Origin: Mobula hypostoma
Taxonomy: Eukaryota
DNA length: 64,000 nt
NCBI RefSeq assembly: GCF_963921235.1
Contig: NC_086108.1
Location: 20,522,001-20,586,000, forward strand
Direction: 5' to 3'
Numbering within the stretch: the first letter of the stretch is position 1; the number at the start of each line of letters is the position of its first letter. Positions 8,526 through 62,408 of the stretch are shown piece by piece. A model generated the notes under the pieces. It was given only the letters and a program-made list of their open reading frames with translations. It ran no database searches and was not told the origin of the DNA. A program made the position numbers and the translations under genes.

Positions 8526-8535
8526 TCCTGATATA

Positions 8536-9048: not shown

Positions 9049-9069
9049 TATATTGAGGGCAGTAGGCCT

Positions 9070-10510: not shown

Positions 10511-10640
10511 ATGGAATTCACCCTCGGGTTCTGAAGGAAGTAGCTGGAGAGATTGCGGAGGCATTAGCGATGATCTTTCAAGAATCGATAGATTCTGGCA
10601 TTGTACCGGATGACTGGAAAATTGCAAATGGTATTCTGCT
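10510..10640 (+). mobile_element. CR1 RT fragment
   Basis: Reads DGIHPRVLKEVAGEIAEALAMIFQESIDSGIVPDDWKIAN. Confidence 0.8.
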
Positions 10641-20884: not shown

Positions 20885-20976
20885 CTGTTGTCTGTTGCTT
20901 TGGCAGGCAGAACTCAAATGCTTAAACCATAGCATTGCATTCTCTCTATTACCAGCTTGGAATTTGTAAGAATTCC
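20885..20976 (-). CDS. RALGPS2: RALGPS2 PH-domain exon, (G)[30 protein letters not shown]
   Basis: tttcag|GG AAT ... CAA CAG|gtac; 92 nt, phase 1 to 0. Matches the recalled RALGPS2 PH C-terminal helix region ([21 protein letters not shown]). Confidence 0.95.
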
Positions 20977-23440: not shown

Positions 23441-24300
23441 GCTATTCTTCTCCAGCAACTAAGTCTGCTCTTACCCCATCCTCCATCACCTTACCAGGGA
23501 TAGGGTTCCTCTTGTCCTCACCTGCCACCCCACCAACCTCTGCTTCCAGCACATAATTCTCCAGAACTTCTGCCATCTCCAATGGGATCCCACCACCAAG
23601 CTCAAGTTCCCCTCCCCTCACACTTTCTGCTTTCACAGGGATCACTCCCTATGCGACTCCCTTGTCCATTCGTCACTCCCCACTAATCTCCCTCCTGGCA
23701 TTTATACTTATAAGCAGAACAAGTGCTACTCCAGCCCCTACAGCTTCTCCCTCACTACCAATCAGGGCTCCAAACAGTCCTTCCAGGTGAGGTGACACTT
23801 CACCTGTGAGTCTGTTGGGGTCATATACTGTCGTGATGAGGCCACACACAAGTTGCAGGAACAACATGTTATATTCCATCTGGGTAGCCTCCAACCGGCT
23901 GGCATGAGGATCAATTTCTCAAACTCCCAGTAATGGCCCCCACCTTCCCTCTCACCATTCTCCATCCCCTTTTCCCTCTCTCACCTGCCCATCACCTTCC
24001 TCTGGTGCTCCTCCAGCCTTTTCTTTCTTCCATAGCCTTCTGTCCTCTCCTGTCGAACTCCCCCTTCTCCAGCCCAGTATCTCTTTCACCAATCAACTTC
24101 CCAGCTCTATACTTCATCCTTCCCCCTCCCGGTTTCACCTACGACCTTGTGTTTTCCTCTCCTCTTCCCACTTTAAAATCTACTTCTCAGCTTAATTTCT
24201 CCAGTCCTGTCGAAGGGTCTCTGCCCAAAATGTCGATTGTACTTTGTTCGATAGATGCTGCCTGAGCTGATGAGTTCCTCCAGCATTTTGTGTGTGTTGA
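23441..24300 (+). mobile_element. Penelope-like retroelement 3' remnant (GIY-YIG linker region and tail with decayed hammerhead)
   Basis: Reads RDRVPLVLT.HPTNL..QHIILQNFCHLQWDPTTK and DHSLCDSLVHS. Tail tagatgctgcctgagctgatgagttcctccagcattttgtgtgtgttg. Confidence 0.8.
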
Positions 24301-28429: not shown

Positions 28430-31400
28430 ATCTTGCTATGCCTCATCTATTTAAATGCCATTATTGTATCTGATTCCAACCACTGACATCAACCACTCAT
28501 TGTGTATAAAAATTACTCCACAGATCCTTTTTAAAATTCCTTCCTATCATGTTAAGTCTATGTCCTTTCATTTTAATCTTAATACTCCTACATCGGAAAA
28601 AAGATTTCTACTATCCATTCTATTTATGCCTCTCATAATCTTATATATTTCCATCAGATCTCACCTCAGCCTCCTTCATTTCTCAACATATCCAATCTCT
28701 CCTTATAACTAAAGCCCTCCAATCCAAGAAACATACTGGTTAATCTTCTCTGCACTCCCTTCAAAATAATCATATCTTAATAATCATATCCCAGTTTGGC
28801 AAAAGAATAAATCAAGGAAGGTAGTGCACCCGTGGCTGACAAGGGAAATTAGGGATAGTATCAATTCCAAAGAAGAAGCATACAAATTAGCCAGAAAAAG
28901 TGGCTCACCTGAGGACTGAGAGAAATTCAGAGTTCAGCAGAGGAGGACAAAGGGGAAAAAAGATTATGAGAGAAAACTGGCAGGGAACATAAAACCTGAC
29001 TGTAAAAGCTTTTATAGATATGTGAAAAGAAAAAGATTGGTTAAGACAAATGTAGGTCCCCTACAGACAGAAACAGGTGAATTGATTATGGGGAGCAAGG
29101 ACATGGCAGACCAATTGAATAATTACTTTGGTTCTGTCTTTACTAAGGAGGACATAAATAATCTTCCGGAAATAGTAGGGGACAGAGGGTCCAGTGAGAT
29201 GGAGGAACTGAGGGAAATACATGTTAGTAGGGAAGTGGTGTTAGGTAAATTGAAGGGATTAAAGGCAGATAAATCCCCAGGGCCAGATGGTCTGCATCCC
29301 AGAGTGCTTAAGGAAGTAGCCCAAGAAATAGTGGATGCATTAGTGATAATTTTTCAAAACTCTTTAGATTCTGGACTAGTTCCTGAGGAATGGAGGGTGG
29401 CTAATGTAACCCCACATTTTAAAAAAGGAGGGAGAGAGAAACTAGGGAATTATAGACCGGTTAGCCTAACATCGGTGGTGGGGAAACTGCTAGAGTCAGT
29501 TATCAAAGATGTGATAACAGCACATTTGGAAAGCGGTGAAATCATCGGACAAAGTCAGCATGGATTTGTGAAAGGAAAATCATGTCTGACGAATCTCATA
29601 GAATTTTTTGAGGATGTAACTAGTAGAGTGGATAGCGGAGAACCAGTGGATGTGGTATATTTGGATTTTCAAAAGGCTTTTGACAAGGTCCCACACAGGA
29701 GATTAGTGTGCAAACTTAAAGCACACGGTATTGGGGGTAAGGTATTGATGTGGATAGAGAATTGGTTGGCAGGCAGGAAGCAAAGAGTGGGAATAAACGG
29801 GACCTTTTCAGAATGGCAGGCAGTGACTAGTGGAGTACCGCAAGGCTCAGTGCTGGGACCCCAGTTGTTTACAATATATATTAATGACTTGGATGAGGGA
29901 ATTAAATGCAGCATCTCCAAGTTGGCGGATGACACGAAGCTGGACGGCAGTGTTAGCTGTGAGGAGGATGCTAAAAGGATGCAGGGTGACTTGGATAGGT
30001 TAGGTGAGTGGGCAAATTCATGGCAGATGCAGTTTAATGTGGATAAATGTGAAGTTATCCACTTTGGTGGCAAAAACAGGAAAACAGATTATTATTATCT
30101 GAATGGTGGCCGATTAGGAAAAGGGGAGGTGCAACGAGACCTGGGTGTCATTATACATCAGTCATTGAAAGTGGGCATGCAGGTACAGCAGGCGGTGAAA
30201 AAGGCGAATGGTATGCTGGCATTTATAGCAAGAGGATTCGAGTACAGGAGCAGGGAGGTACTACTGCAGTTGTACAAGGCCTTGGTGAGACCACACCTGG
30301 AGTATTGTGTGCAGTTTTGGTCCCCTAATCTGAGGAAAGACATCCTTGCCATAGAGGGAGTACAAAGAAGGTTCACCAGATTGATTCCTGGGATGGCAGG
30401 ACTTTCATATGATGAAAGACTGGATGAACTAGGCTTATACTCGTTGGAATTTAGAAGATTGAGGGGGGATCTGATTGAAATGTATAAAATCCTAAAGGGA
30501 TTGGACAGGCTAGATGCAGGAAGATTGTTCCCGACATTGAGGAAGTCCAGAATGAGGGGTCACAGTTTGAGGATAAAGGGGAAGCCTTTTAGTACTGAGA
30601 TTAGGAAAAACTTCTTCACACAGAGAGTGGTGAATCTGTGGAATTCTCTGCCACAGGAAACAGTTGAGGCCAGTTCATTGGCTATATTTAAGAGGGAGTT
30701 AGATATGGCCCTTGTGGCTAAAGGGATCAGGGGGTATAGAGGGAAGGCTGGTACAGGGTTCTGAGTTGGATGATCAGCCATGATCATACTGAATGGTGGT
30801 GCAGGCTCGAAGGGCCGAATGGCCTACTCCTGCACCTATTTTCTATGTTTTCTTTCAATGTGACAAACGTAACTCCACATAATATTTCTAACCAGTGTTT
30901 TGTAAAACCACAAGTAACATCCTAACTCTCATATTCTGTTCTGTGACTTCTGAGAGGAAGCATGCTATTTTCCTTCTTCACTATCCTATTGACTTTGGCT
31001 GTTTCTTTCAGGGAACTATGGTTTTGAACCTCCAGGTCTCTCTGTTCATCAACATTCATTAGTGCCCTACCATTTACAGCATATGTCCTACATCTATCTG
31101 ACTTCCCAAAATGCATCATCTCACACTCATCAGGACCAAACTCCATTTGCTAACGCTCCATTTAACTTTTCTTCTGATCTATATCCTGCTGTAGTATCAG
31201 ACAGGTTTCCTTGCTATCCACAACCAGTAACTGTTGTGTAATCCGCAAAATTATTGATCGTTCCTCCAACATTCGCATCCAAGTTATTAATGTATAGTGC
31301 AAACAGCAACAATCCTAGCACTAGTCACCACTGTATGCCACTTGTTGCAGACTTCCAATCAACAAAACATCCCTCCATTACTACCTTCCTCCTCCTTTAC

Positions 31401-33151: not shown

Positions 33152-33244
33152 ATGTTTTCTTTCTGTCGGTTTTAAAGATTTGGCTGAATAGTAATATAGT
33201 TTTGTTCCACATAATGCCACCCAATACTTGGTCCATGATGCAAC
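33152..33244 (-). CDS. RALGPS2: RALGPS2 PH-domain exon, [31 protein letters not shown]
   Basis: tttttttgttaag|GTT GCA ... AAA CAT|gtaagt; 93 nt, phase 0-0; lies inside ORF-track entry 33095..33295. Matches recalled RALGPS2 [31 protein letters not shown]. Confidence 0.95.
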
Positions 33245-35099: not shown

Positions 35100-37635
35100 A
35101 TGGTTGCTGAGGCGGCGCGAGGTTTAAAAAAAGAGCCTTTTGGTACTTTTCAGTGTCCGCAACATTCTAAAGGCAGTGGCTGCACCGCTAGAAGTTATGG
35201 TACACATTGGTACCAATGACAGGTAAGAAAAAGGATGAGGTACTGAAAAGAGAATATAGGGAATTAGGTAAAGCTGAAAAGCAGGACTTCTAGGGTAGTA
35301 ATCTCTGGATTGCTGTCTGTGCCACATAGGGTGATTTGACAGATGTGTGGCTGAGGAAATGGTGCAGGGGGTGAGATTTCAGATTTCTGGATCATTGGTA
35401 CACAAATTAGCCAGAGAAAGTGGCTCACCTGAGGACTGGGAGAAATTCAGAGTTCAGCAGAGGAGGACAAAGGGCTTAATTAGGAAGGGGAAAAAAGATT
35501 ATGAGAGAAAACTGGCAGAGAACATAAAAACGGACTGTAAAAGCTTTTATAGATATGTAAAAAGGAAAAGACTGATAAAGACAAATGTAGGTCCCCTGCA
35601 AACAGAAACAGGTGAATTGATTATGGGGAGCAAGGACATGGCAGACCAATTGAATAATTACTTTGGTTCTGTCTTCACTAAGGAGGACATAAATAATCTT
35701 CCAGAAATAGTAAGGGACAGAGGGTCCAGTGAGATGGAGGAACTGAGCGAAATACATGTTAGTAGGGAAGTGGTGTTAGGTAAATTGAAGGGATTGAAGG
35801 CAGATAAATCCCCAGGGCCAGATGGTCTGCATCCCAGAGTGCTTAAGGAAGTGGCCCAAGAAATAGTGGATGCATTAGTGATAATTTTTCAAAACTCGTT
35901 AGATTCTGGACTAGTTCCTGAGGATTGGAGGGTGGCTAATGTAACCCCACTTTTTAAAAAAGGAAGGAGAGAGAAACCGGGGAATTATAGGCCGGTTAGC
36001 CTAACGTCGGTGGTGGGGAAACTGCTGGAGTCAGTTATCAAGGATGTGATAACAGCACATTTGGAAAGCGGTGAAATGATCGGACAAAGTCAGCATGGAT
36101 TTGTGAAAGGAAAATCATGTCTGACGAATCTCATAGAATTTTTTGAGGATGTAACTAGTAGAGTGGATAGGGGAGAACCAGTGGATGTGGTATATTTGGA
36201 TTTTCAAAAGGCTTTTGACAAGGTCCCACACAGGAGATTAGTGTGCAAACTTAAAGCACACGGTATTGGGGGTAAGGTATTGGTGAGGGTGGAGAATTGG
36301 TTGGCAGACAGGAAGCAAAGAGTGGGAATAAACGGGACCTTTTCAGAATGGCAGGCGGTGACTAGTGGGGTACCGCAAGGCTCAGTGCTGGGACCCCAGT
36401 TGTTTACAATATATATTAATGACTTGGATGAGGGAATTAAATGCAGCATCTCCAAGTTTGCGGATGACACGAAGCTGGGTGGCAGTGTTAGCAGTGAGGA
36501 GGATGCTAAGAGGATGCAGGGTGACTTGGATAGGTTGGGTGAGTGGGCAAACTCATGGCAGATGCAATTTAATGTGGATAAATGTGAAGTTATCCACTTT
36601 GGTGGCAAAAATAGGAAAACAGATTATTATCTGAATGGTGGCCGATTAGGAAAAGGGGAGGTGCAACGAGACCTGGGTGTCATTATACACCAGTCATTGA
36701 AAGTGGGCATGCAGGTACAGCAGGCGGTGAAAAAGGCGAACGGTATGCTGGCATTTATAGCGAGAGGATTCGAGTACAGGAGCAGGGAGGTACTACTGCA
36801 GTTGTACAAGGCCTTGGTGAGACCACACCTGGAGTATTGTGTGCAGTTTTGGTCCCCTAATCTGAGGAAAGACATCTTTGCCATAGAGGGAGTACAAAGA
36901 AGGTTCACCAGATTGATTCCTGGGATGGCAGGTCTTTCATATGAAGAAAGACTGGATGAACTGGGCTTGTACTCGTTGGAATTTAGAAGATTGAGGGGGG
37001 GATCTGATTGAAACGTATAAGATCCTAAAGGGATTGGACAGGCTAGATGCGGGAAGATTGTTCCCGATGTTGGGGAGGTCTAGAACGAGGGGTCACAGTT
37101 TGAGGATAGAGGGGAAGCCTTTTAGGACCGAGGTTAGGAAAAACTTCTTCACACAGAGAGTGGTGAATCTGTGGAATTCTCTGCCACAGCAAACTGTTGA
37201 GGCCAGTTCATTAGCTATGTTTAAAAGGAAGTTAGATATGGCCCTTGTGGCTACAGGGGTCAGGGGCTATGGAGGGAAGGCTGGGTTCTGAGTTGGACGA
37301 TCAGCCATGATCATAATAAATGGCGGTGCAGGCTCGAAGGGCTGAATGGCCTACTCCTGCACCTATTTTCTATGTTTCTATGTTTCTAATACTCTTGTGG
37401 GCAGGTTTGCTAGAACTACTGGGGACGATTTAAACTAATTTGGCAGTGGGATGGGAACTAAGAGTGATATGACTGATGATGAGGTGGTTGGCATACAAGT
37501 AGATTGAGACTGTGAGGAAGGCAAAACTGCAGTCAGAGGGTTAAATTGAAATGTAACATGGGGACAAAATCGAAAAGGAAGATGAGTACAGGACCAAAAG
37601 TGTTATATATGAATGCATGCAGTAGATGGAATAAG
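35100..37635 (+). mobile_element. Older CR1 ORF1/ORF2-junction fragment (35100-35398 and 37388-37635) hosting a younger CR1
   Basis: VMVHIGTND and FRFLDHW on the left; ILVGRFART..DLN* and KVLYMNACS on the right. Confidence 0.75.
35399..37387 (+). mobile_element. Young 5'-truncated CR1, same subfamily as 28790-30855
   Basis: RT ORF with KFADDTK; +1 frameshift in the G run near 36995; tail attttctatgtttctatgtttcta. Confidence 0.95.
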
Positions 37636-39310: not shown

Positions 39311-39885
39311 AAGACTCCTACTCCTGGTCAATATTCAATTATTGCAAAACATCCCTCTGACTGAAATGAATAATGGACATCACTTCCCTCCAAACTCATT
39401 TGTACTCAAATAGCCTTTCTATTATTAGACACATTTCTTCTGCTACCAATGATGTTTCAAAAACCTTCTACTGCTTTTGGGAAAGCAATGTTTTCTTGGC
39501 TTCTTCATTTTGTCATTAGTACTTCTTTAAGAATCTAAATTTATTTTTAGTAGAATCTTCCTCATATGTAGTTCAATACCCCTACTGTTACTCTAATTAT
39601 TCAATTCACCAGGACAACTTGCACATAGCTCAAATCATTACTATATGTTTTTTTTCTAACTTGGACTCTAGCTTTCCATACTTTCTCAGCAGAAACTATT
39701 TCAGTGGTCTTCATTGGTCTTTAACTAGTCCTTTTAACATGGTAAGACAATCCATGGGGCTTTTTAGATGGGGCACATATCTGAGGCAAATGAGAAGATA
39801 TAGATTAGTCAAAGAAACATTGGTTAAGGAGCATGAAAGAGGATAGAGATGAAGAGAGAATTCCAGATAACAGCAGTGGCAAAAG

Positions 39886-39921
39886 AGTCCTGACGAAGGG
39901 TCTCAGCCTGAAACGTCGACT
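39886..39921 (+). ncRNA. Minimal type I hammerhead ribozyme motif in a ~97-bp Penelope-derived insertion (39886-39982)
   Basis: AGTC-CTGACGA-AGGGTCTCAGCCT-GAAA-CGTC-GACT: intact CUGANGA and GAAA core, GUC cleavage triplet, 4-bp helix I, short helix II, palindromic ACGU in place of helix III. Confidence 0.75.
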
Positions 39922-40959
39922 GCGCCCCTTCCTATAGATGCTGCTTGGCCTGCTGCGTTCACCAGCAACTTTGATGTATGTTGCAAAAGCATGCCCACCC
40001 ATAGTGAAATGATTAAAATCAAGGTGTGAAAGAAGCCATGAACAGGAAAGTGCAGATAGCTTGCAGCATTTTTTGTGGTTAGATTATGTTATAGACAAAG
40101 AGGCCACAGGCCACAGAGGTTTTAAAATATTAAGAGTGAGCCATTGTTAAATTGTGAGCCAACACATGGAGTAAATGACACAGAGTGAATTTCAAGCAGT
40201 TAAGTCTTGAATGAACAAGTTGAATAATGGCAGGTTGGTCAGGAGGTGTTTTATATTGTCAGATCCAGACGTGGCAATGACATGTATATGGGTTTAAGTT
40301 GTAGTGAGTTGGGCTGAATTCAGACAATTTAAGTGAAGGAGAATTTGACTGTATTGTTGAAGGAGGAGGTGCTATTGGTCAGAAACTCATCGGGGACAAA
40401 AGTGAAACTGGTATATTGAAAAAGGACAAGAATTTTGCACTGTTGCTGTAATTTTTCTTAAACTGCTCATACAGTTTTGTTTTCAAGGACTTGTGTATGG
40501 ATATTGGTTCAAAACAGAAAAAGATCAAACTGAGGTGCCCAACAAAGTATTGAGAAATCACTATCATCAGTGAAACATCAACATTTCAGAGAGAAAACTT
40601 TCCAAACAAAATACAACTAAAATTTTAACAGAATTTGCACACTGTGAAAAAAGCTATTAAATCATTCTTCAAACAATTACAAAAACGGTTGTAAGACAGA
40701 CCAGTGCAGCAGTAGTGATAAATTCAGGAATGGTCTCCTCTTCCAGATGGAAAAACTGCACACACCATAACAGGTACCAGATACTACAGACAAAAATCAG
40801 ACTATATCATCATCATCATCATAATTCTCCGTGTGACCTTTGCACGACTGCTGCACAAATTGGAAACTGCATGTCCTACATTAATAATAATGACAACACC
40901 TCAAAAGAATTTGTTTTCCTTTGGGGGGAAGGGGTCCCCTAGGAATGAGGATTACGTAC

Positions 40960-41892
40960 TTTGATCCATTTCTGTGGCTTCCGCTGTCAGTGTTGTGGAC
41001 CCTGTCAGAGATGGAAAATGAAATGTTTGGCAGAGCAATTAATCTGGGAGGTGGTTTATGCATACTGTCTATGCTGGGCTTCTCTATGCTCCCGGTACAT
41101 GTTCAAGGTTCTCAAAGTGATCCCAAATTCTCTTTCTTGATTTCGAAGTTATGAACCTAGGATTCCCAATGGTGAGTTGAGACATTGCACTTTTTCCAAG
41201 AAATGTTTTGAGAACATTCTTAAAGCTTTTTGTTGTCCACTTGGTAATCTCTTAGTATGACAGAGTTTGGAATAAAATGCGTGTGTGGATGTCCTTAAGT
41301 GTCAATTTCATGGGTCTACCATTGAATGTGCAAATAATATGGACTACCTCATACAGCAAATTTATGCCTTAATACCTCGGACACTGCCTGGAAAGTCAAT
41401 TTGCACTGGTTCACTTAACCTGCTACTGAATTTGGAAAATTTTGAATCAATAGTTTTAGTAGCACTTCTCCAAGCCTTTGAACCACCTGCTGTAAGTGGC
41501 CTAAGTCACAAAAACAAGCACTGCTGAGACTGTAATGTTCAAACATCTTTTTCCTTAGGTAGCTAGAGGCTGTTCTGATGGACTGATGGTGACGTGATTT
41601 TAATCATAACCTTTGCTTTTGTTATGGTGATTCCCAAGAGATGAGAATTGCCTCTCCTCTTGAAGAATATTTCACAATTATGAAATTTCTCAGCATACAC
41701 TCCACAAATCTCTTGGCACTTGGAGGTTGTGGATTTGGGATCGAAGTTCCTCACTGCCAAGTTTTAGAACTCCTGGTGTGATATAGTCTGTTCTTGAGCA
41801 CCTTGCCGCTTTTCACCAAGGAAATGGCTTTTTTGACTTCTTACTGAATAGGGATAGTGGCAAGGCCGGTCTAGATAATATTCTATGGAATG
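40960..41892 (-). mobile_element. Degraded RTE-like LINE fragment
   Basis: Weak resemblance to an RTE RT N-terminal region; heavily mutated. Confidence 0.35.
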
Positions 41893-41900
41893 GTGTAAAG

Positions 41901-42066
41901 CAGCGGTGGCCAACCTTTTACATTCCATGCGTCAATTTTTTCACGCACGAGTTCTATATTAACATATTTTTACAAGAATTGAATGGGGGTACAAGAGTTG
42001 TATGGCACATCTGAACTCGTGCGTGAAAAAACTGACGCATGGAATGTAGAAAGTTGGCCACCCCTG
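41901..42066. mobile_element. hAT (Charlie-type) MITE
   Basis: ~54-bp TIRs (cagcggtggccaacctttt... / ...aaagttggccacccctg). Perfect 8-bp TSD GTGTAAAG at 41893-41900 and 42067-42074. Confidence 0.92.
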
Positions 42067-42654
42067 GTGTAAAGGATCCTCCGATCAAAGATTTTAACTC
42101 TAAATTTGCATAATCCTTACAATTAAGCACCTTGGGGCATGCAAAGGGGACATAAAAGGTGCTATACAAATATATCTCTTTCCAAAGCATAGTTTCAATT
42201 TATTATACATCTGACTTCTGTTTGACAAAGATCTCTTTTTCACCTGTTATATAAAAAAAATTTACTTCAAACAGCAGCAACCAGCATACTAGTGTGCAGA
42301 CACCTTATTTTATCTTTAGAAACTATAAAAACAGAGTCACATCCTGCTAATACACTTCAGTTAAGGTTACCCAAATGTTTGCTTTATTATTTCCATATGA
42401 TCTTCCCTTGATGTTGCAGTCACAGTCTTCTTTTTGCAGCCTAGTTTGTGTAAATAATAAATCACTAAATTATCACAAGGAAATACTACATCAACTTTAC
42501 TAATTTTTCACACCATTATTCTTTTCCTCTCATTCCAATATTCAGGCTATTTTCCCAAAACTTGGAGAAGTTAGTCCAGAAACTGCTCTGGATAAACCAC
42601 TAAAAATTTGGGCCCCTAATCTCATATGGCAACAAAATAAATTAAAAGATAGTA

Positions 42655-43849: not shown

Positions 43850-46800
43850 TAAAACATAGAATATAGAACATAGAAATCTACAGCACATTACAGGCTTTTC
43901 AGCCCACAATATTGTGCTGAACTACTCGAGAGTCTGTCTAGAATTTCCCGACTACATAGCCCTCTATTTTTCTAATCTCCACGTATCTATCTAAGAGGCT
44001 CTTAAAAAAACCTATTGTATCTGCCTCTACCACCATTGCTGGTGGTGCATTCCATGCACCACACACTCTCTGTGTAGAAAAATTTACCCCTGACATCCCC
44101 CCCGTACCTACTTTCAAGCATCTTAAAACTATGCCCTGTCATGTTAGCTATTTCAGCCCTGGGAAAAAGCCTCTGGCTATCCACACGATCAATGCCTCTC
44201 ATTTTATACACCCCTATCAGGTCACTTCTCATCCTCTGTTGCTCTAAGGAGAAAAGGCCAAGTTCACTAAACTTATTCTCACAAGGCACCCTCTCCAATC
44301 CAGGCAACATCCTTGTAAATCTCCTCTGCACTCTCTCTATAATATCCACATCCTTCCTGTGGGGAGGTGACCAGAACTGAACACACTACTCCAAGTGGGG
44401 TATAACTAAGGCCCTATACAGTTGTAACATTACCTCATGGCTCTTGAACTCAATCCCACAGTTGACGAAGGCCAACACAACATACGCCTTCTTAATAACA
44501 CTGTCAAACCGTGCAGCAGTTTTGAGTGTCCTATGGACAAGGACCCCAAGATCTCTCTGATTTATGATCCTCCACACTTCCAACAGTCTTGCCATTTATA
44601 TCATCTTTAATTTTGACCTACCAAAATGAATCACTTCACACTTATCTGGGTTGAACTCCATCTGCCACTTCTCAGCCCAGTTCTGCATCCTACCGACGTC
44701 TTGCTGTAACCTCTGACAACCCTCCAGACTATCCACAACATCCCCAACTTTTGTATCATCAGCAAACTTACTAATCCACTCCTCTATGTCCTCATCCAGG
44801 TCATTTATAAAAATCACAAAGAGGAGGGGTCCCAGAATAGATCCCCATGGAACACCACTGGTCACCGACCTCCATGCAGAATAAGAACATCTACAACCAT
44901 TTTTTGCCTTCTGGATCCACAAAGCAAGGTCTCCTTAGATCCCATGCCTCCTTTCTTACTTTCATGGGGAACCTTATCAAATGCCTTACTGAAATCTATA
45001 TACTCTACATCCATTGCTCTACTTTCATCAATGTGTTCTGTTATATCCTCAAAGAATTCGTAAGGCCTGCCTTTCCTTGACAAAGCCATGCTGACTACCC
45101 CTAATCAGATTATGTCTCACCAAATGCTCATAAATCCAACCTCTCAGGATCTTCTCCAACAACTTGCCCACTACTGAAGTAAAACTTACAGGTCTATAAT
45201 TTATTGGGTTATCTCTACTCCCTTTCTTGAACAAGGGAACAACATTTGCAACCCTCCAATCCTCTGGAACTTCTCCCGTCCCTATTGATGACGCAAAGAT
45301 CATCAGCAGAACCTTAGCAATCTCCTCTCTTGCTTCACACAATAGCCTGGGGTGTACCTTGTCCAGAGCCGGTGACTTATCTAACTTAATGCTTTTCAAA
45401 AGCTCCAGCACGTCCTCTTTCTTAATGTCTATATGCTCAAGTATTTCAGTCTGCCGTAAGTCATACCCCCAATTGCCAAGGTCCTTTTCCCTGGTGAATA
45501 CTGAAGCAAAGTATTCATTACGTGCATTACCTCCTCCGACTCCATACACACATTTCCACTATCGCACCTGATTGGTCCTATTCTCACATGATTCAACCTC
45601 TTGTTCTTCACATATTTGTAGAATGTCTTGGGGTTTTCCTTAATCCTGCTCGCAAAGACATTCTCATGGCACCTTCTAGCTCCTTAAGCTCCTTCCTGAC
45701 AACCTTGTAATTTTCTAGAGCTCTAACAGTACCTAGTTCCTTGAACCTTCTGTAAGCTTTTCTTTACTTCTTAACTAGATTTTCTACATCCTTTGTACAC
45801 CATGGTTCTTTTACCCTACCATCCTTTCCCTGTCTCAATGGAACGTACCTATGCAGAATGCCATGCAAATGTTCCCTGAACACCATATTTGCCACCTTTC
45901 TGCCGTTCATTTCCTTAAGAACATCTGCTCCCAATTTATGCTCCCGTGTCTGCCTAACAGCATCATATTTCCCCTACCCCAATTAAATGTTTTCCCAAGT
46001 CGTCTGCTCCTATCCCTTTCCAGCGCTATGGTTATGGAAGATAAGAGTTGTGATCACTACCTCCAAAATACTGTCCCACCGAGAGACCTGACACCTGACC
46101 AGGTTCATTTCCCAATACCAGATCGTACAGCCTCGCCTCTAGTTGGCTTATCTACAGATTGCATCAGGAAACCTTCCTCAACACAGCTAACAAACTCCAC
46201 CTCATCCAAATCTCTTGTGCTAAGGAGATGCCAGTCATTGATAGGAAAGTTAAAATCACCGTCACAACAATCCTATTATTATTGCACCACTCCAGAATCT
46301 GCATCCCTATCTGCACCTCAATGTCCATGTTACTATTGGGGGTCTATAAAAAACACCCAGTAGAGTTATTGCCTCCTTCTTGTTTCTGACTTCCACCCAC
46401 ACTGACTCTGTAGACAATCTTTCCATGACTTCCTCCTTTTCCGCAGCCTTGATATTACCCCTGATTAGCAATGCCATGCCCCTACCTCTTTTGCCTCCCT
46501 CCCTGTCCTTTTTGAAATATCTAAAGCCCGACACCCTCAGCAGCCATTCCTGCCCCTGAGATATCCAAGTCTCTGTAATGGCCACAATGTCATAGTTCCA
46601 TGTATTGATCCACGCTCTAAGTTTACCCGCCTTGTTTATGATACTCCTTGCATTAAAATAGCTACATCTCAAACCATCTGTCTGTGTATCTTTGCTCTGT
46701 CATCTGCCCATTCTTCTTCACAAACTCCCTACAAGCTGTCTCTACTTGTGTGCCAACTGCCCTATCCTCTGCCTCTTCACTTTGGTTCCCACCCCACTGC

Positions 46801-47702
46801 AAGTCTCATTTAAACCCTCTCCAATAGCATTAGCAAACCTCCCTTTCAATTCAGGTGCAATCCATCCCACTTATAAATGTCACCCCTTCCCCAGAAAAGG
46901 TTCCAATGATGCAAGCACTTGAAACCCTGCCTCCTGCATCATCTCCTCAGCCACTCATTCGTCTGTGCTGTCTTCCTGTTCTGACCTTCCCTAGCTCGTT
47001 ACACTGGGAGTAATCTGGAGATCACCTCCTTGGAGGTCCGGCTCTTCAGCCTCCTTCCTAACTCCCTAAACTTACTGCACATGTCTCTCCTGCCTATGTC
47101 AGTGGTACCAATATGTACCACAGCCTCTGGCTGCTCACCTCCACTTCACGAATATTCTGCAACCGCTCAGCACATCCTGGACCCTAGCACCTGCGAGGCA
47201 ACACATTATCCTGGGGTCTCTTTTGCTGCCGCAGAATCTCCTGTCTGCCTCCCTAACTATCAAGTCCCCTATGACATTTGCTCTGTCTGACTTCAGCCTT
47301 CTGTGGCTCAGAGCCAACCACAGTGCTATTGGTCTGGCTTTTGCTGCCTTGCCCAAATAAGTCAGCCCCCTCATCAGTGTCCAAAGGCATATACTAATTG
47401 CCGAGGGGAATAGACACAGGGGAATCCTGCACTGACTTCTTTCTCCCTTTACCTCTCTCGGTGTTCACCCATCTACTCCCTGAATTCTGCACTCTGTTTG
47501 TAACCACATGCTCAAAAGTCTCATCTATCAATTGTTCTGCCTCCAGGATGATCCTTGGTTCACCCAACTCCAACTCTAGCTCCATCTCCTTAATGTGGTC
47601 TTTCAGGAGCTGGAGTTGGCTGCACTTCCCACAGGAGTAGTCATCGGGGAGTCCAGCAGGTCCGATGAATTCCCAAATTCTACAGGAAGTGCATTCATAT
47701 TG
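43850..47702 (-). mobile_element. Near-full-length degraded CR1 LINE (ORF1 zinc finger, coiled coil and esterase; ORF2 EN-RT)
   Basis: ORF1 CX2CX16CX2C (CTSC...CGKC) followed by LQLLKDHIKEMELEL. EN motifs YFNARS and TETW; RT KFADDTK; (ttctatg)n-type tail at ~43852. Confidence 0.9.
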
Positions 47703-48817: not shown

Positions 48818-51800
48818 ACATAGAATAGTACAGCACAGTACAGACCCTTCGGCCCACAATGTTGTGCCGACCCTCAAACCCTGCCTCTCATATAACCCCC
48901 GACCTTAAATTCCTCCATATACCCGTCTAGTAGTCTCTTAAATTTCACTAGTGTATCTGCCTCCACCACTGACTCAGGCAGTGCATTCCATGCACCAACC
49001 AGTCTCTGAGCAAAAAACCTTCCTCCAATATCCCCCTTGAACTTCCTACCCCTTACCTTAAAGCCATGTCCTCTTGTATTGAGCAGTGGTGCCCTGGGGA
49101 AGAGGCGCTGGCTATCCACTCTATCTATTCCTCTTATTATCTTGTACACCTCTATCATGTCTCCTTTCATCTTCCTTCTCTCCAAAGAGTAAAGCACTAG
49201 CTCTCTTAATCTCTGATCATAATGCATACTCTCTAAACCAGGCAGCATCCTGGTAAATCTCCTCTGTACCCTTTCCAATGCTTCCACATCCTTCCTATAG
49301 TGAGGCAATCAGAGCTGGACACAGTACTCCAAGTGTGGCCTAACCAGAGTTTTATAGAGCTGCATCATTATATCGTGACTCTTAAAACTCTATCCCTCGA
49401 CTTATGAAAGACTTATGTTAGTGCGCATATGCCAGTCGTGCAAGCAGCCTGTTACAGCCGTTCTGACTAATAATCTTACTTTTTTCTTCTTACTTCTTTA
49501 ACTTACGTTATTTTTTGTATTTTTTTTTCACGGTAACACGTTGAAGCTGCACCCTCTCAAACATGCTGGTAGAGAGAGTTTTATTTGGGTTTTTAGCGCT
49601 GGAAATAGTTACATTCCGACACGTCTCATTAGCGGGGCAGAAGCATGGTCGCATTGTTTATTCCAGGGACCAGCTGATTGAGCGTATGCCGGCCGGTTTA
49701 GCAAGCAGAACGCGGAAAACTATCTGGAGGAAAACACACAGACGATCCATAGGGGGATCACAAAGGTGAGGAAAGAGGACCGGTCGAGACAACAGAGACT
49801 TATGGAGAAGAGGTGATCGGTGGGTGATAAAATGGACGAGTTCGCAGCACTAGCCAGGCATCAGAGAACATTTCGGGAGTGCAGTGTTATGTGTTTTACT
49901 GGAACGGGGCTGCACGAGGACATACCTGATCAAAACTTTTCCATGGAGGGCTTCCAGACCGATCGGGCTGACCGGAAGTGCACTGAGAACGGTAAGCGTA
50001 AAGCAGTTGGGGGCTGACTGTTCTGGTTAACAACGGATTGTGCAATCCGGGTCATATTATGATCGAGGAACATGTTTGTAGACCGGGTATTGAACTTCTT
50101 GCTGTTGGACTCCGGCCATATTCCACCGAGATACAACACTGGGTGTCATGGGAGGTTGTTCCTGCCTGTGGCTATCGAACTTTGCAGCTCCTCCCGTGGA
50201 GGGTCAGACACCCTGAGCCAATAGGCTGGTCCTGGACTTATTTCCATCTGGCATACTTTGCATTTTGTTGTTTGATTGTCTGTGGTTTTTGTATTGCTAT
50301 ATTTATGCTCTATTCTTGGCTGGTGCGGCTGTAACGAAACCCAATTTCCCTCGGGATCAATAAAGTATATCTATCTATGTATCTATCACTCCATAAGCTT
50401 TCTTAACTACCCTATCTACCTGTGAGGCAACATTCAGGGATCTGTAGACATGTACCCCCAGATCCCTTTGCTCCTCCACACTACCAAGTATCCTGCCATT
50501 TACTTTGTACTCTGCCTTGGAGTCTGTCCTTACAAAGTGTACCACCTTACACTTCTCCGGGTTGAACTCCATCTGCCACTTCTCAGCCAACTTCTGCATC
50601 CTATCAATGTCTCTCAACAATCTTCGACAATCCTCTACACTATCTACAACATCACCAACTTTTGTGTCATCTGCAAACTTGCCAACCCACCCTTCTACCC
50701 CCACATCCAGGTCGTTAATAAAAATCACGAAAAGTAGAGGTTCCAGAACCGATCCTTGTGGGACACCACTAGTCTCAACCCTCCAATCCAAATGTACTCC
50801 CTCCACCTGCTTTCTGCAGGCAAGCCAATTCTGAATCCACCTGGCCAAACTTCCCTGGATCCCATGCCTTCTGACTTTCTGAATAAGTCTACTGTGTGGA
50901 ACCTTGTCAAATGCCTTACTAAAATCCATGTAGATCACATCCACTGCACTACCCTCATCTATATGCCTGGTCACCTCCTCGAAGAACTCTATCAGGCTTG
51001 TTAGACATGATCTGCCTTTCACAAAACCATGCTGACTGTCCCTGATCAGACCATGATTCTCTAAATGCCCATAGATCCTATCTCTAAGAATCTTTTCCAA
51101 CAGCTTTCCCACCACAGACGTAAGGCTCACTGGTCTATAATTACCCGGACTGTCCCTACTACCTTTTTTGAACAAGGGGACAACATTCGTCTCCCTCCAA
51201 TCCTCCGGTACCATTCCCGTGGACAACGAGGACATAAAGATCCTAGCCAGAGGCTTAGCCTCCCTCACCTCATGCAGTAGCCCGGGGAATATTCCGTCAG
51301 GCCCCGGGAACTTATCCATCCTAATGTATTTTAACAACTCCAACACCTCCTCTCCCTTAATATCAACATGCTCCAGAACATCAACCTCACTCATATTGTC
51401 CTCACCGTCATCAAGGTCCCTCTCATTGGTGAATACCGAAGAGAAGCATTCATTGAGGACCTTGCTCACTTCCACAGCCTCCAGGCACATCTTCCCACCT
51501 TTATCTCTAATCGGTCCTACCTTCACTCCTGTCGTCCTTTTGTTCTTCACATAATTGAAAAATGCCTTGGGGTTTTCCTTTACCCTACTCGCCAAGGCCT
51601 TCTCACGTCCCCTTCTTGCTCTTCTCAGCCCCTTCTTAAGCTCCTTTCTTGCAACCCTATGTTCAACAGACCTATCTAATCCTTACTTCCTAAACCTCAT
51701 GTATGCTGCCTTCTTCCACCTGTCTAGATTTTCCACCTCACTTGTCACCCATGATTCCTTCACCCTACCATTCTTTATCTTCCTCACTGGGACAAATTTA

Positions 51801-53070
51801 TCCCTAACGTCCTGCGAAAGATCCCTAAACATCGACCACATGTCCATAGTACATTTCCCTGCAAAAACATCATCCCAATTCACACCCGCAAGTTCTAGCC
51901 TTGTAGCCTCATGATTTGCCCTTCCCCAATTAAAAATTTTCCTGTCCTCTCTGATTCTATCCTTTTCCATAATAATGCGAAAGACCAGGGAGCGGTGGTC
52001 ACTGTCCCCCAGATGCTCACCCACTGAGAGATCTGTGACCTGACCTGGTTCATTACCTAGTACTAGATCTAGTATGGCATTCCCTCTAGTTGGCCTGTGA
52101 ACATACTATGACAGGAATCCGTCCTGGACACACTTAACAAACTCTGCCCCATCCAAACCCTTGGAACTAATCAGGTGCCAATCAATATTAGGGAAGTTAA
52201 AGTCACCCATGATAACAACCCTGTTATTTTTGCACATTTCCAAAATCTGCCTCCCAATCTGCTCCTTGGCATCTCTGCTGCTACCAGGGGGCCTATAGAA
52301 TACTCCCAATAGAGTAGCTGCTTCCTTCCTGTTCCCGACTTCCACCCATACTGACTCAAAAGAGGATCCTGTTACATTATCCACCCTTTCTGTAGCTGTA
52401 ATAATATCCCTGATCAGTAATGCCACCCCTCTTCCCTTCCCCCCCACTATCCCTTTTAAAGCACTGAAATCCAGGAATATTGAGAATCTATTCCTGCCCT
52501 GGTGCCAGCCAAGTCTCTGTAATGGCCACTACATCATAATTCCATGTATGTATCCAAGCTCTCAGTTCATCACCTTTGTTCCTGATGCTTCTTGTATTGA
52601 AGGACATGCACTTTAGCCCTTCTACCTTACTACCTTTACACCCTTTATTATGCTTCTCTTTCCTCAAAGCTTCTCTATATGTTAGATCTGGCTTTACTCC
52701 ATGCGCTTCTTTCACTGCTCTATCGCTCTGGGTTCCATCCCCCTTGCAAGTTAGTTTAAACCCTCCCAAACCATGCTAGCAAACCTACCTGCAAGGATAT
52801 TGCTCCCCCTTGAGTTCAGGTGCAACCCATCCAATCTGTACAGGTCCCACCTTCCCCAGAAGAGATCCCAATGATCCAAAAATCTAAAACCCTGCTCCCT
52901 GCACCAACTCCTCAGCCATGCATTCAACTGCCATCTCCTCCAATTCTTACCATCACTATCACGTAGCACTGGCAGCAATCCTGAGAACGCCACCCTTGAG
53001 GTCCTGTTCTTCAGCCTTCTGCCTAGTTCCCAAAACTCACACTTCAGGACCTCATCCCTCATGCATTCCT
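48818..53070 (-). mobile_element. CR1 LINE (ORF1 C-terminus and ORF2 with several lesions), split by the insertion at 49411-50387
   Basis: ORFs 52751..53086 (esterase, DGLHLN), 52488..52769, 52106..52447, 51683..52024, 50375..51595 (KFADDTK) and 48874..49308. Confidence 0.93.
49411..50387 (+). mobile_element. Bipartite non-autonomous Rex1-type element (5' end and EN start fused to the 3' end)
   Basis: IVYSRDQL and ECSVMCFT..L...RADR...IELLAVGLRPY, then an abrupt jump to the C-terminal remnant and tail gggatcaataaag(tatc)n. Confidence 0.8.
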
Positions 53071-55809: not shown

Positions 55810-56242
55810 TGTATGACAGAGCTCATGTGGATGGAGGAGCAAGACCATATATTCCATCTGGGTAGCCTCCACCTTTATAGCATGAATATTGATTTTCCTG
55901 GCTTTAAAAAAAATCTCCCCTCCTGTATTCCCCACTCTGACCTTTTACCTCTTCTCACCTACCTATCACTTCCCTTGGGTCCCCTTCTCTTTTCCCTTCT
56001 CCCAAGGTCCAATCTCCTCTCCTATCTGATACCTTCTTCTCAGCCCTTCGCCTTTCCCACCCACCTGGCTGCACCTATCATCTTCCAGCTCACCTCCTTC
56101 CCCTCCCCCCATCTTTTTATTCATGCATCCTCCTTCCTTCTCAGTCCTTAAGAACAGTCTCAGCCTGAAACGTCAACTGTTTACTCATTTCCATACTGCC
56201 TGCCCTGCTGAGTTCCTCCAACATTTCCTGCCACACACACTA
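55810..56242 (+). mobile_element. Penelope-like 3' fragment
   Basis: Reads EEQDHIFHLGSLHLYSMNIDF; pyrimidine-rich UTR; decayed hammerhead at 56142-56179. Confidence 0.75.
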
Positions 56243-56887
56243 AATCACTTGGTCTCTGACTTCCTCAATGGACTCACAGTCAGGACTTCGGCCACCAGGC
56301 CTCAACTTCTGTACTTCCAATTGACCTTCAGCCTCAAACTCCAAACTTGCCATTTGTATACCTAGCGGGTCATGTTTGTGTTTCTGTGGAAGGATACAGG
56401 CTGTGCCCCACCCCCAACCCACCCCAGGTCATTTAGTCCTCCCAATTTGGCAGGTCCTGGGACTGGTCATCTGTATGGAAAGGAGGCATGAGGGCCAATG
56501 ACCCGCTAGGTATACAAATTGCGAGTCTAGAGTTTGAGGCCTGAAGTTCGGGGTCCTGTCATTGTTGACCATGGGATTGATAGTGGAGATCAAAGCCTGA
56601 AGGTCAATTGGAAGTATGGAAGTTGAGGCCTGGTGGCCAAAGTCCTGGCTCTGAGTCAGAGACCCAGTGATTATGAATCCACTGGAGGCTGGAGGCCCAG
56701 AGGCAGACTGAACTACGGTTGGAATACTGTCTGTGCTTGTGAGTGGGTGGGTGGGTGCAAGGAAAGTGACTTGTTTTACTGTTGTTATGTTGTTGTTGCT
56801 CTGCTTGTGAACATTATGGACATGCTATGTTGGGCACAGAATGTGTGGTGATACTTGTGGGCTGAGCTCAGCAGAGTCTTAGGTTGC

Positions 56888-57625
56888 AAACACACAATAA
56901 TCTGCAGATGCTGGAAATCTAAAGCAACACACATGAAATGCTGGAGGAACTCAGCAGACCAGGTAGCATCTATGGAAAAGAGTAAACAGTCATTGTTTTG
57001 GGCTGAGACCCTTTGTCAGGACTGGAAAGGAAGAGGTGAAGTCAGATCAAGTAGGTGGAGGGAGGGGAGGAAAAAGTACAAAGTGGTTGGTAACAGGTGA
57101 AACTAGGAGAGGGGGAGGGGGGTAAGTAAAGAGATGGGAAGTTGATTGGTGAAAGAGATAGAGGGCTGGAGAAGGGAGAATATGATAGGTGAGGACATAA
57201 GACCATGGAAGAAAGGGAAGGGGGAGGAGCACCAGAGGGAGGTGATAGGCAGGTAAGGATATAAGGTGAGAGTGGGAAACAGGAATGGGGAAAGATGAAG
57301 GGGTGGGGGGGGGGAGAGTTCGAGAAATTGATGTTCATGCCATCAGGTTGAAGGCTACCCAATTGGAATATAAGGTGTTGCTCCTCCAACCTGAGTGTGG
57401 CCTCATTGTGGCAATAGAGGAATCCATGAACTGACACATTAGAATGAGAATGGGAAGTAGAATTAAAATGAGTGGCCACCAGGAGATCCTGCTTTTTGTG
57501 GTGGACAGAGCGAAGGTGCTCAGCAAAGCTGTCTCCTAATCTACATCAGGTCTCACTGCTATACAGGAGGTCACACCAGGAGCACCAGATACAGTAGATG
57601 ACCTCAACAGACTTGCAGGTAAAAC
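56888..57625 (-). mobile_element. Penelope-like 3' fragment (GIY-YIG C-terminal part)
   Basis: ORF 57042..57479 reads VATHFNSTSHSHSNVSVHG...RLEEQHLIFQLGSLQPDGMNINF; decayed hammerhead at 56987-57024. Confidence 0.85.
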
Positions 57626-59390
57626 GTTGCTTCTTAAAGTGCTGTCTGTTAACGCAAATGACACAGTTCACTGTATGTTTCACTGTACGTGTGATAAAAA
57701 AATTAACCTATTCAAATCCAAGAGATGCAAGATGTATACAATATTCCAGGTGTAATCTCACCCAGGGTGCTGTGTAATTGTAGTAATATGTCTTTACTCC
57801 TGTAATCCAATTCTCTTGCAATGAAAACCATATTGCATCTTTCTCCTTAATTGCTTCTTGCACCTGCATGCAAAGTTTCAGATATACATGTAAATGGACA
57901 TAGAGGTCCCTCCAAACCTCAACATTTAGTTATGACTTGCAAATTTTGTTGTTTTTTTCAGCTTTCACTCTACTTTCAACATTTTATAAATAATAAAAAT
58001 GTATCAGCAACCCATACTTATTTGTACGCACGGTTGACAATTTTAAGATAAATCAAGAGAAAATTTTTACAATTCTTTCCATTCCTCCACCACCCTAACA
58101 TACCTTACTGCTTTATGAATATGAACATCAGCCATTATGGGGATTTGAAAATTGGTTTTCAAGCTCATGCTGTGGGAGGTACATATTGTAAGCCTTGGTC
58201 TGTTCAAAAGCAGTTTTCCCTCACAGTTCTTATTTGCAAGAGCTGGAATTTCTTGATATAAATCCTTTTAGTACTCCCATTAAGAAAGAATTAAGTTACA
58301 AAACAGCTATCATGCAATAACCTGGAGACGATGAACACTGAATTCTGGCAACTATATACTTATTTTCTAATGCTTAATGACAATTGCCAAATGGTTTCAA
58401 CTTTACAGGGCCACATGGAGAAACTTTGCAGTTAATGATTACAATTGTAAAAATGGACCCTTTCATTCCCTCAGTATTGGCAGGAGTATTTGATTAAGCT
58501 CAGCATTAAACATTGCACCTATTAAACAGATGATGCTTGAAAACAGATTAAATGAATTTTGCAGTCTGAGAATTCAGAACTTTTTTTAAAGAATGTGATA
58601 GGATCTGCCAGTTATTGAACTAACGTCAGTTGGCAATAAAATGAGAATTTGAGGAAGGCACTGTGGTTAGCTGCTATGGAAGCAGTAAAATACACACCAA
58701 AATTCATCCAAGACTGCATCATGGTGACTGTGTAATAGAGTTTGACTCTGCAAAAAAGAGTAGTCGCAAAATCAAAGACAAAAAAATAAAGAATACAAAA
58801 CTTTTTCAAGCACTGATCTTCAACTTCACATTGGTCAGTGTAAGTCACACCTCTTTCTAAATGAGCGCATGTGGGAATCTCCCAATTACTGTCCAGATCA
58901 AAAATCCTCAGGACATGATTGTTTAAGGTGAGAAAACCTTTTCCTCAGGGAATGTACAGAATGATCTTGACCAGTTTGCCGCTCCTTAACTTGCACTTGA
59001 AGAAGCACTTGCATACAAACAGTTCTTTCAAAGCCAAGATATTGAAATATTCTCATGAAGCAAGAGGAACGGGCTGGCTCACCCTCCTAAAGGATGCTCT
59101 CACGTTGGTGTCAGAGACTGAAATTCAGAGTGATCAGGGAATGTGGAAGTTTGTGAAGGTTCCTCCATGTTTTGATGGTCAAAGTGAGCATAGATAGCGA
59201 ATAACACAGTTAAAGGTGACATCCTTTGGACAATTCATTACTTTCATTTCTTACAGTAGAGTGAAGGGAATTACAGAGGCATGAGAGAGGAGTTGGCCAG
59301 AATTCATTGGAAAAGAACACTGGCAGGGATGATGGCAGAGCAGCAATGGCTGGAATTTCTGGAAGCAATTCAGAAGGCACAGGACATATA

Positions 59391-61117: not shown

Positions 61118-62408
61118 TACATCCCAAAAAAGTATTCTAAAGGAAAGATGACAGAGCCAACAAAAAAGCCAAAGAGAGGGCATTTAATACAGCAAAACTT
61201 AGTGGGAAGTTACAGGATTGGGAAGCATTTAAAAACCAACAGAAAGCAACTAAAAAAAAGTCATTAAGAAGGTAAAGATGGAATATGAAAATAAGCTAGC
61301 TAATAATATTAAAGAGGATAGAAAAAGTTTCTTCAGATACATTAAGTGTAGAAGAGAGGCCAGAGTGGATATTAGACTGCTGGAAAACGATGCTGGATAG
61401 ATAGTAATTGGGGACAACGAAATGGTGGACAAACTGAATAACATCTTCAGCATTTTGTGTGTGTTGCTCAGATTTCCAGCATTGCAGATTTTCTCTTGTT
61501 CGTGATGAATTGAGTAAGTATTTTGTGTCAGACTTCACTGTGGAAGACACTATCAGTATGGTGAAAGCTCCAGGTGTTAGGGGTCATGCAGTGTGTGAAG
61601 TTACCATGACCAGAGAGATGGTTCTTGCAAAATTGAAAGGTCCAAAGTTAAAAAAGTCACCTGGAACAGATGGTGTACACCCCAGGGTTCTGAAAGAGGT
61701 AGCTGAAGAGATTATGGAGGCATTAGTAATGATCTTTTAAGAATCACTAGATTCTGGAATGGTTCCAGAAGACTGGAAAATTGCAAATGTCACTCCACTC
61801 TTTAAGAAGTGAGAGAAGCAGAAGAAAGGAAACTATAGCCCAGTTAGTCTGACTTCAGTGGTTGGGAAAATGTTGGAGTTGATTATTAAGGATGAGGTCT
61901 CAGGGTACTTGCAGGCACATGATAAAATAGGCCATAGCCAGCATGGTTTTCTCAAGGGGAAATCTTGCCTGACAAATCTGTTGGAATTCTTTGAAGAAAT
62001 AACAAATAGGATAGACAAAGGAGAATCTGTTGATAATGTGTACTTGGATTTTCAGTAAATCTTTGACAAGGTGCCACACACGAGGCTGCTTAACAAGCTT
62101 CAAGTCCATGTTATTACAGGAAAGGTTCTAGCATGGATAAAGCAGTGGCTGATTGGCAGAATGGGAATAAAGGGAGCCTTTTCTGATTGGCTGCCAGTGA
62201 CTGGAAATATTCTACAGGGTTCTGTGTTGAGACCGGTTCTTTTTACATTATCTTTCAATGATTTGAATGATGGAACTGATGGCTTTGTTGCAAAGTTTGC
62301 AGACAATATGAAGATAGGTGGAGTGGTGGGTAGTTTTGAGGAAATAGAGAGGCTTCAGAAGACAGACAGATTAGGAGAATAGGCAAAGAAATAGCAGATG
62401 GAATACGA

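Follow-up and report, generated by a model that had tools for sequence, protein, structure and literature searches.

A short insertion that opens within the first helix of a minimal hammerhead ribozyme and spans 97 bases raises two linked questions: which process set its two ends, and does the ribozyme motif that it carries do anything at the locus where it stands? The insertion lies in the window, i.e., the whole stretch of 64,000 nucleotides that was analysed and to which all coordinates refer. The explanation that we favour, and which on the whole we regard as probable, is that of a recent target-primed insertion made from the uncut RNA of a Penelope-like element, copied by run-off to the 5′ end of that RNA and inert at its present position. 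The 97-bp copy is of value chiefly because the insertion is clean, can be dated and has an empty site that was verified, and its exact start, which seems to be a favoured one, may reveal where the RNA of a Penelope-like element begins. The features on which the argument draws are collected in Table 1.

Table 1. Coordinates of the insertion, its hammerhead motif, related copies and the nearest host exon in the window.
Feature	Position	Strand	Remarks
Left copy of the 7-bp target-site duplication, GCAAAAG	39879..39885	+	Occurs once at the empty site in organisms B, C, and D
97-bp insertion: pseudo-LTR end of a Penelope-like element, optional tail absent	39886..39982	+	104-base skip; 73-76% identity to three window copies
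Helix I, 5′ strand AGTC	39886..39889	+	Longer copies have a pyrimidine tract with a final C just before it
Core CUGACGA and unpaired A between positions 9 and 10.1	39890..39897	+	Consensus CUGANGAH (PMC4209133, Fig. S3)
Helix II, 4 bp (G.U, G-C, G-C, U.G) with 4-nt loop	39898..39909	+	Fold and published register
GAAA core, ACGT palindrome (39913-16), and GUC triplet	39910..39917	+	Predicted cut after C39917; architecture per PMC4209133
Helix I, 3′ strand GACT	39918..39921	+	Letters and fold
Remainder of the repeat to the first of two preferred 3′ ends	39922..39982	+	Differing letters 39924, 39927, 39945
Right copy of the duplication, GCAAAAG	39983..39989	+	First two letters, GC, also fit the next letters of the family
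5′-truncated related copy, decayed hammerhead	23836..24299	+	3′ end same as that of the 97-bp insertion
Related copy, decayed hammerhead	55829..56230	+	
Longest related copy, with a broken endonuclease end (GIY-YIG/CCHH-type), a pyrimidine-rich 3′ UTR, a decayed hammerhead and a tail	56887..57632	-	
Short related copy starting downstream of the hammerhead, with tail	61442..61503	+	Decayed 14-bp duplication (10/14 match)
Nearest recognised RalGPS exon (PH domain)	33152..33244	-	Context

A Young Insertion and Its Empty Site

Contigs from four public sequencing runs (of 24 listed), representing four other organisms designated B, C, D, and H, were compared with the window over positions 39590-40280. 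In three of the four runs, those of B, C, and D, one contig each connects 39878 directly to 39983, with 7, 7, and 5 letters, respectively, fitting either side of the junction. The 104 bases omitted are the 97 of the unit plus one GCAAAAG, a word which is single in the empty site, and the insertion of about 97 bp flanked by GCAAAAG that a sequence-only reading of the window had described is thereby confirmed in three relatives. This 7-bp target-site duplication, single in the empty site of three organisms, is of the kind expected of a Penelope-like insertion. In organism H (run X19), the flanks were uncovered and depth was found in 8 of 29 bins.

Because the empty site recurs in three relatives, the insertion and its 7-bp duplication are both real and young. 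The flanks diverge from the window by 5 substitutions and one gap over 587 bases in B, by 19 substitutions over 509 bases in C and by 32 over 587 bases in D, figures which place the arrival of the insert after a split of about 1% divergence, or have it segregating at that split. As a presence/absence marker, the insertion sets the lineage of the window apart from the three relatives. At its right edge, judging from the letters, the GC of 39983-84 is a possible 2-bp priming microhomology.

The Hammerhead Motif

A string check on the letters of the window places AGTC at 39886-89, CTGACGA at 39890-96, GAAA at 39910-13, GTC at 39915-17, and GACT at 39918-21, and all the coordinates previously read for the motif and for the two GCAAAAG copies (39879-85 and 39983-89) are right. 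The palindrome ACGT (39913-16) stands where helix III would be and can pair only with a second copy of the motif. In the published register, the whole reads AGUC CUGACGAA GGGU CUCA GCCU GAAA C G U C GACU. The CUGANGA ... GAAA core with its NUH triplet is that of a minimal type I hammerhead, and since the core, the short helices and the ACGT palindrome in place of helix III fit the consensus given in the figures of PMC4209133, the attribution to the minimal, dimer-forming architecture of Penelope-like elements stands.

Two details of that description need amendment. The word “intact” is justified for the core, but not for the first pair of helix II, which is G39898.U39909 in place of the conserved G10.1-C11.1; position 11.1 is U in the insert and C in two of the three other window copies. 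This pair is highly conserved, not invariant, and several lines of Fig. S3 carry G-U there (PMC4209133). Likewise, the insert does start with AGTC, but not exactly at the outer end of helix I: the helix has 4 bp in the insert and 5 bp in the family (CAGTC/GACTG), the extra C being present in all three longer window copies, so that the insert begins one base inside it. The unpaired base between positions 9 and 10.1 is A39897 in the preferred fold, which reaches -6.0 kcal/mol vs. -4.6 kcal/mol for a bulge-free A-U register.

When both strands of the window were scanned with a minimal-hammerhead descriptor, one site was found; 60 simulated windows that matched it in trinucleotide composition gave no site, and the motif is therefore not a product of chance. 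A motif scan had been suggested as a check; the Rfam models, for their part, gave no hammerhead match. Eight weak hits with E up to 5 were returned for the window, and not one of them is a hammerhead or falls at the position of the motif. Folding z-scores are not unusual (-0.97 for the 36-nt motif and +0.67 for the 111-nt stretch). Pattern scans for further copies returned none in viral contigs, zero and then one in metagenome contigs, and one in prokaryote genomes; the metagenome and prokaryote matches were set aside as chance, as both are devoid of helix I and of the rest of the repeat.

The Penelope-Like Family of the Insert

A BLAST search with the 97 bases retrieved three more window copies, at 24203-24298 (73%), 56143-56215, and 57023-56926, over an identity range of 73-76%, together with a short 3′ piece near 61445. 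The likeness to the 24-kb copy had been noticed earlier, but its extent had been drawn too short, all 97 bases being common to both, the degenerate hammerhead included. The shared part had also been called a tail, a label to be dropped: in the literature the tail is an optional extension of 30-40 bp, which is absent from the 97-bp copy and present in the 57-kb and 61-kb copies. As a separate observation, the Penelope piece of ~62 bases near 61445 lies within a LINE fragment (61428-61517).

Upstream of the motif, the 57-kb, 24-kb, and 56-kb copies continue through ~300 pyrimidine-rich bases and then into the end of an endonuclease gene. The translation of the 57-kb copy comprises 105 residues with one stop, in which two cysteines lie between GIY- and YIG-like words and histidines follow later, a pattern that bioRxiv 2021.04.23.441226 describes for Penelope-like elements; read by eye, the piece would be the endonuclease of an EN+ Penelope-like element. 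Pfam returned 0 families for this decayed piece, and none of the window copies found reaches the reverse transcriptase domain. The clade of the element may be Neptune-like.

The insert is thus identified as the end of the terminal repeat of a Penelope-like element that bears an endonuclease and a minimal type I hammerhead and is present in high copy, and the earlier suggestion of an independent miniature family gives way to the end of a longer Penelope repeat. This family is very abundant, 8,449-20,933 contigs per run matching the stretch with depth confined to the insert, a figure which is not a copy number. Four copies in the window cover the motif, and the 97-bp one alone retains an intact hammerhead core. 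At letters 39909-10 the four read TG, CA, CA, and TG, the pattern of a decayed CG. Two loose-end consensus rows, among those listed, read CCCGAAA, i.e., C at 11.1; no T>C change at this place was counted among the contigs of the relatives, however, and many members of the family may therefore carry U at 11.1. At 39923, C makes up 56% of the summed depth in B and 36% in H, and only 2-4% in C and D, a pattern that fits a subfamily expanded in the lineage of the window's organism. The three differing letters listed in Table 1 depart from the dominant family letters of B, C, and D (86-99% of depth) and are more numerous than the time since the split from B would lead one to expect (Poisson P 0.009-0.05); in so young an insert, the surplus may point to a template that had already diverged or to an enzyme prone to errors.

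The 3′ End and an Uncut Template

The 3′ ends of the five window copies fall into few classes: the 97-bp and 24-kb copies stop at the first preferred end, the 57-kb and 61-kb copies bear the optional tail of 30-40 bp, and the 56-kb copy stops earlier. Behind 39984, the loose ends of contigs in two runs show the tail mixed with unrelated flanks. In the results described for Poseidon of the anole, reverse transcription begins downstream of the hammerhead at two internal sites, which are separated by the optional tail, and the main template is uncleaved RNA (PMC11167929). We infer that the first preferred 3′ end of the family in the window is such a reverse-transcription start. Since the insert spans the cut site, its template RNA was uncut.

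An Apparently Favoured 5′ Boundary at Helix I

An end made by cleavage, as in R2-like ribozyme-bounded inserts, would be at 39918, and the actual 5′ end is 39886. Ribozyme cleavage was accordingly rejected as its maker, the boundary being 32 bases upstream of the predicted cut. Of the ribozyme-bounded unit proposed from the sequence, what seems to hold is the favoured start at helix I, not a boundary set by cleavage. Two other causes were rejected as well: an enzyme stalling at the hairpin would first meet the 3′ strand of helix I (near 39922), and microhomology at the 5′ end fails because the target ends in G and the family has C.

Short copies seem to start preferentially at helix I in four relatives. 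Among the 24 rows listed of 455 loose-end rows, those before 39887 comprise 212, 126, 142, and 182 contigs in the four runs and have an A/T-rich consensus with an agreement of 0.33-0.35, random window flanks giving 0.31-0.32 in simulation. Among the same listed rows, those at 39886 comprise 419-554 contigs with an agreement of 0.41-0.45 and a visible pyrimidine tract in all runs, and the 39888 row of run X12 is likewise pyrimidine-rich. The joints at which contigs re-enter the unit are concentrated at the same place, 10 of 11 falling at 39884-39890 with no letters of the pyrimidine tract in between (strand not given), although these are single contigs, and contigs are not copies. Four of these joints leave from the 3′ end of the unit (39976-39984), in a head-to-tail-like manner, and six from 39916-39923, around the cut site. 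The binomial probability for four of five joints, about 1e-5 to 7e-5, was computed on an interval picked after the fact and is for that reason not relied on. The searched literature yielded no report of a 5′-end peak at helix I, a weak negative given its thin coverage of subscription journals and Repbase.

Six contigs, from runs X5 and X19, exit the unit at 39916-39923 and re-enter it at 39884-39886, the strand not being given; if both parts are on the same strand, these joints would be tandem pairs of a bare ribozyme of 31-40 bases, i.e., ready-made dimers, or jumps onto cut RNA.

The alternative that survives best, while still being unlikely in our estimation, is ordinary random 5′ truncation, with a fortuitous stop at helix I and a pile-up which is an edge effect of the reference. 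Most Penelope insertions are 5′-truncated according to the portion of bioRxiv 2021.04.23.441226 that deals with them, and the five window copies have five different starts, only one of which is at helix I. The aligned stretch, moreover, contains none of the family's upstream sequence, so that longer copies accumulate at 39886-39888 by construction, and, in an ungapped comparison of the 30 upstream bases, agreement among the longer window copies themselves is no higher than 0.20-0.43, so that low agreement alone is no proof of unrelated flanks. What random truncation accommodates poorly is that the 39887 rows are A-rich in four of four runs when the rows of continuing copies, at 39886 in all runs and at 39888 in X12, are pyrimidine-rich, and that the re-entry joints cluster as they do.

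Splicing might also set the boundary, an explanation that we regard as improbable. The pyrimidine tract and CAG before TCC would then be the 3′ splice site of an intron in the 5′ UTR, and copies starting at helix I would stem from spliced or splicing-processed RNA, as the intron of the Drosophila virilis element ends there. The 30 bases upstream are indeed 0.70-0.87 pyrimidine, with CAG in all three longer copies, and in the D. virilis sequence, as annotated in PMC2377424, the intron occupies 416-491 and position 3 of the hammerhead is at 496, which puts the exon start 4 bases before the core, compared with 2 here. Spliced templates should, however, bring along an upstream exon, and the insert has only AG between its duplication and the putative exon; the flanks of the 39887 rows are A/T-rich, with no common exon consensus.

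A third and very improbable alternative is that of an independent, SINE- or retrozyme-like non-autonomous family, in which units of ~97 bases would be transcribed and recopied by the Penelope protein, head-to-tail dimers forming the dimeric ribozyme. Its support comes from the four head-to-tail-like joints of organism B, which lead from the 3′ end of the unit to helix I, from the three non-dominant letters of a young copy, as if taken from a diverged template, and from the descent of retrozymes from Penelope repeats reported in the relevant passages of bioRxiv 10.64898/2026.07.22.740005. Those joints are nevertheless single contigs with a depth of 5.7-9.8, the window holds no tandem array, no letter was found that distinguishes short from long copies, and the nearest family variant also runs on into the ordinary tail; the extra differences are equally explained by an error-prone enzyme or a rare subfamily.

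Run-Off Reverse Transcription as the Proposed Origin

Under the run-off reading that we prefer, a Penelope-like element would have made a target-primed insertion from an RNA whose hammerhead had stayed uncut, its enzyme starting at the internal site closest to the 5′ end of the RNA, downstream of the hammerhead. The anole experiments describe a Penelope protein that initiates reverse transcription internally, downstream of the hammerhead, on RNA that has not been cleaved (PMC11167929), two properties that account for the 3′ end of the 97-bp insert and for its retained cut site. If an RNA of the element begins at helix I, copying to its 5′ end would give a favoured stop, and the product would be a unit of ~97 bases, comparable to strong-stop cDNA. 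Where helix I begins, the longer copies have TCCAGT or CTCAGT, words that resemble the initiator consensus; that the RNA starts at the A of this word, and that copying runs off there, is the reading that we prefer as most likely. Two points count against it: the same word is equally a 3′ splice site, and the start site of the D. virilis element, as mapped in PMC2377424, lies far upstream, ~120 bases before the hammerhead and not at it. In the region of the 97-bp insert, no downstream promoter element at the usual spacing was evident by eye.

It is possible, but to our mind rather doubtful, that the numerous solitary minimal hammerheads of these genomes are strong-stop-like run-off products and not random truncations, and that jumps build tandems and pseudo-LTRs. 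On the one hand, uncut RNA would give units of ~97 bases from helix I; on the other hand, ribozyme-cut RNA would give units of ~65 bases from the cut, and jumps at run-off would generate the tandems and pseudo-LTRs. If this were true, the ratio of ~97- to ~65-base units would constitute a fossil record of the frequency of hammerhead cutting in vivo. The favoured boundary, if real, bears both on in vivo cutting by Penelope hammerheads and on the regeneration of tandem pseudo-LTRs.

Activity at the Locus and the RalGPS Gene

Besides the exon of Table 1, further RalGPS-type PH exons of the minus strand lie near 21.3 kb and near 20.97 kb, and the last coding piece of the gene is likely located near 0.9 kb on the same strand. 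Since the RalGPS exons are on the minus strand, the hammerhead motif is antisense to a RalGPS gene, and this much of the claim that it is antisense to RALGPS2 holds; the best PDB match of the RalGPS-type exons is RalGPS1A (E 4e-9 and 7e-9). We presume that the host gene is nonetheless RALGPS2 rather than RALGPS1. Motif searches over 33.3-64 kb found no RalGPS exon upstream of the insert, and its intronic position within the window is accordingly presumed.

The RalGPS transcript would carry the antisense of the motif, in which there is no hammerhead core, and the same-strand neighbour copies, 16 kb away, have broken cores. According to nearest-neighbour energies, which disregard tertiary contacts and protein help, the best fold of the monomer (-10.0 kcal/mol) pairs the core with CGUC, the hammerhead-like fold reaching -6.0 kcal/mol, and the active form of the dimer reaches -9.5 vs. 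-23.2 kcal/mol for the best dimer. The models disfavour self-cleavage of a dimer of the 97-bp copy. In published assays, minimal hammerheads did not cleave as monomers and did so weakly as dimers, and the anole motif was cut only in the presence of its protein (PMC11167929). With a single copy at the locus, broken neighbours and no intact same-strand partner in the window, a core that is misfolded and buried in the models, and the wrong strand for the RalGPS transcript, the copy is probably inert where it stands, contrary to the potentially active ribozyme of the sequence-only reading, and the motif is most likely a passenger with no effect on the host.

A working ribozyme that cuts an antisense transcript here, in trans with another copy or aided by protein, is hardly credible: every core position is present, the anole hammerhead cleaves upon addition of the protein of its element (PMC11167929) and the family offers many possible trans partners, but the insertion is very recent and absent from three relatives, and hence not conserved, its 10.1-11.1 pair is G.U, its modelled folds are unfavourable, monomers were inactive and dimers weak in published in vitro work, in which one of nine Xenopus dimers was cleaved, and the anole RNA data, as presented in PMC11167929, contain no reads ending at the cut site.

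Other Repeats of the Window

Several other features of the window are recorded in their own right. At 41891-42074 lies an inverted-repeat element with 59-bp arms that are 90% complementary and an exact direct repeat, TGGTGTAAAG, at 41891-41900 and 42065-42074; it looks like a MITE with its duplication and draws the top two weak Rfam microRNA matches. The near-perfect hairpin at 18120-18355 (108-bp arms, 87% complementary, 20-base spacer) is probably also a MITE, and no clean duplication was found around it. Two LINE-like fragments of ~2 kb, at 28882-30850 and 35402-37377, are 94.6% identical, share the same orientation and are 6.5 kb apart; we assume them to be CR1-type. The pair flanks the RalGPS exon of Table 1 and is a possible substrate for its deletion or duplication. 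Long pyrimidine-skewed segments at 44201-47075 and 48913-53040, 71-77% similar and about 5.9 kb apart, probably represent a pair of long minus-strand LINE copies, and at 54796-54991 a unit of 66-67 bases is repeated three times in tandem, the repeats being 73-86% alike.

Comparison with Known Systems

The motif is of a kind known since 2014, when minimal hammerheads were described in Penelope-like elements (PMC4209133). As depicted in that paper, it shares with them the CUGANGAH core, the extra base before helix II, the short helix I, the GAAAC-GUC palindrome in place of helix III, and the location downstream of the end of the endonuclease, and the genomic copies reported there are mostly solitary, as is the 97-bp copy. 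It differs in having G.U, not G-C, at 10.1-11.1 and a helix II of 4 bp, at the short end of the published lengths. No cartilaginous fish is seen among the species lines consulted in Table S1 and Fig. S3, and the accessible parts of the paper do not describe the start positions of solitary copies (PMC4209133).

Among systems studied at the level of mechanism, Poseidon of Anolis carolinensis shares two 3′ ends that lie 30-40 bases apart, i.e., by the length of the tail, as well as an A/T-rich target, and its inserts keep the hammerhead uncut, like the 97-bp copy (PMC11167929). Reverse transcription of Poseidon starts within a stem-loop rich in A and C, ~111-118 bases into the ORF, whereas the 3′ end in the window is UG-rich on the strand of the motif. 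Short run-off inserts from the 5′ site are an extension of the Poseidon model and not among the results laid out for it (PMC11167929). In Penelope of D. virilis, the end of one repeat is the 5′ UTR of the next copy, a further likeness, and the intron acceptor coincides with the beginning of helix I (PMC2377424), the place at which the longer window copies show a pyrimidine tract and CAG. In the published map, the start site of that element is at 371, which leaves 45 bases to the intron and about 120 to the hammerhead, both of them further downstream (PMC2377424).

Non-LTR retrozymes, as characterised in the corresponding sections of bioRxiv 10.64898/2026.07.22.740005, are likewise small non-coding units with a type I hammerhead and an origin in Penelope repeats; their monomers are scattered over chromosomes, and they are present in the one cartilaginous fish sampled there. 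They are defined by arrays of at least two tandem units, whereas the 97-bp copy is a lone unit with its own duplication, head-to-tail-like joints being rare and found in a relative. Set beside these systems, the 97-bp copy is less ordinary in two respects: its empty site could be verified, and there is a hint that its 5′ boundary, at helix I, is a favoured one.
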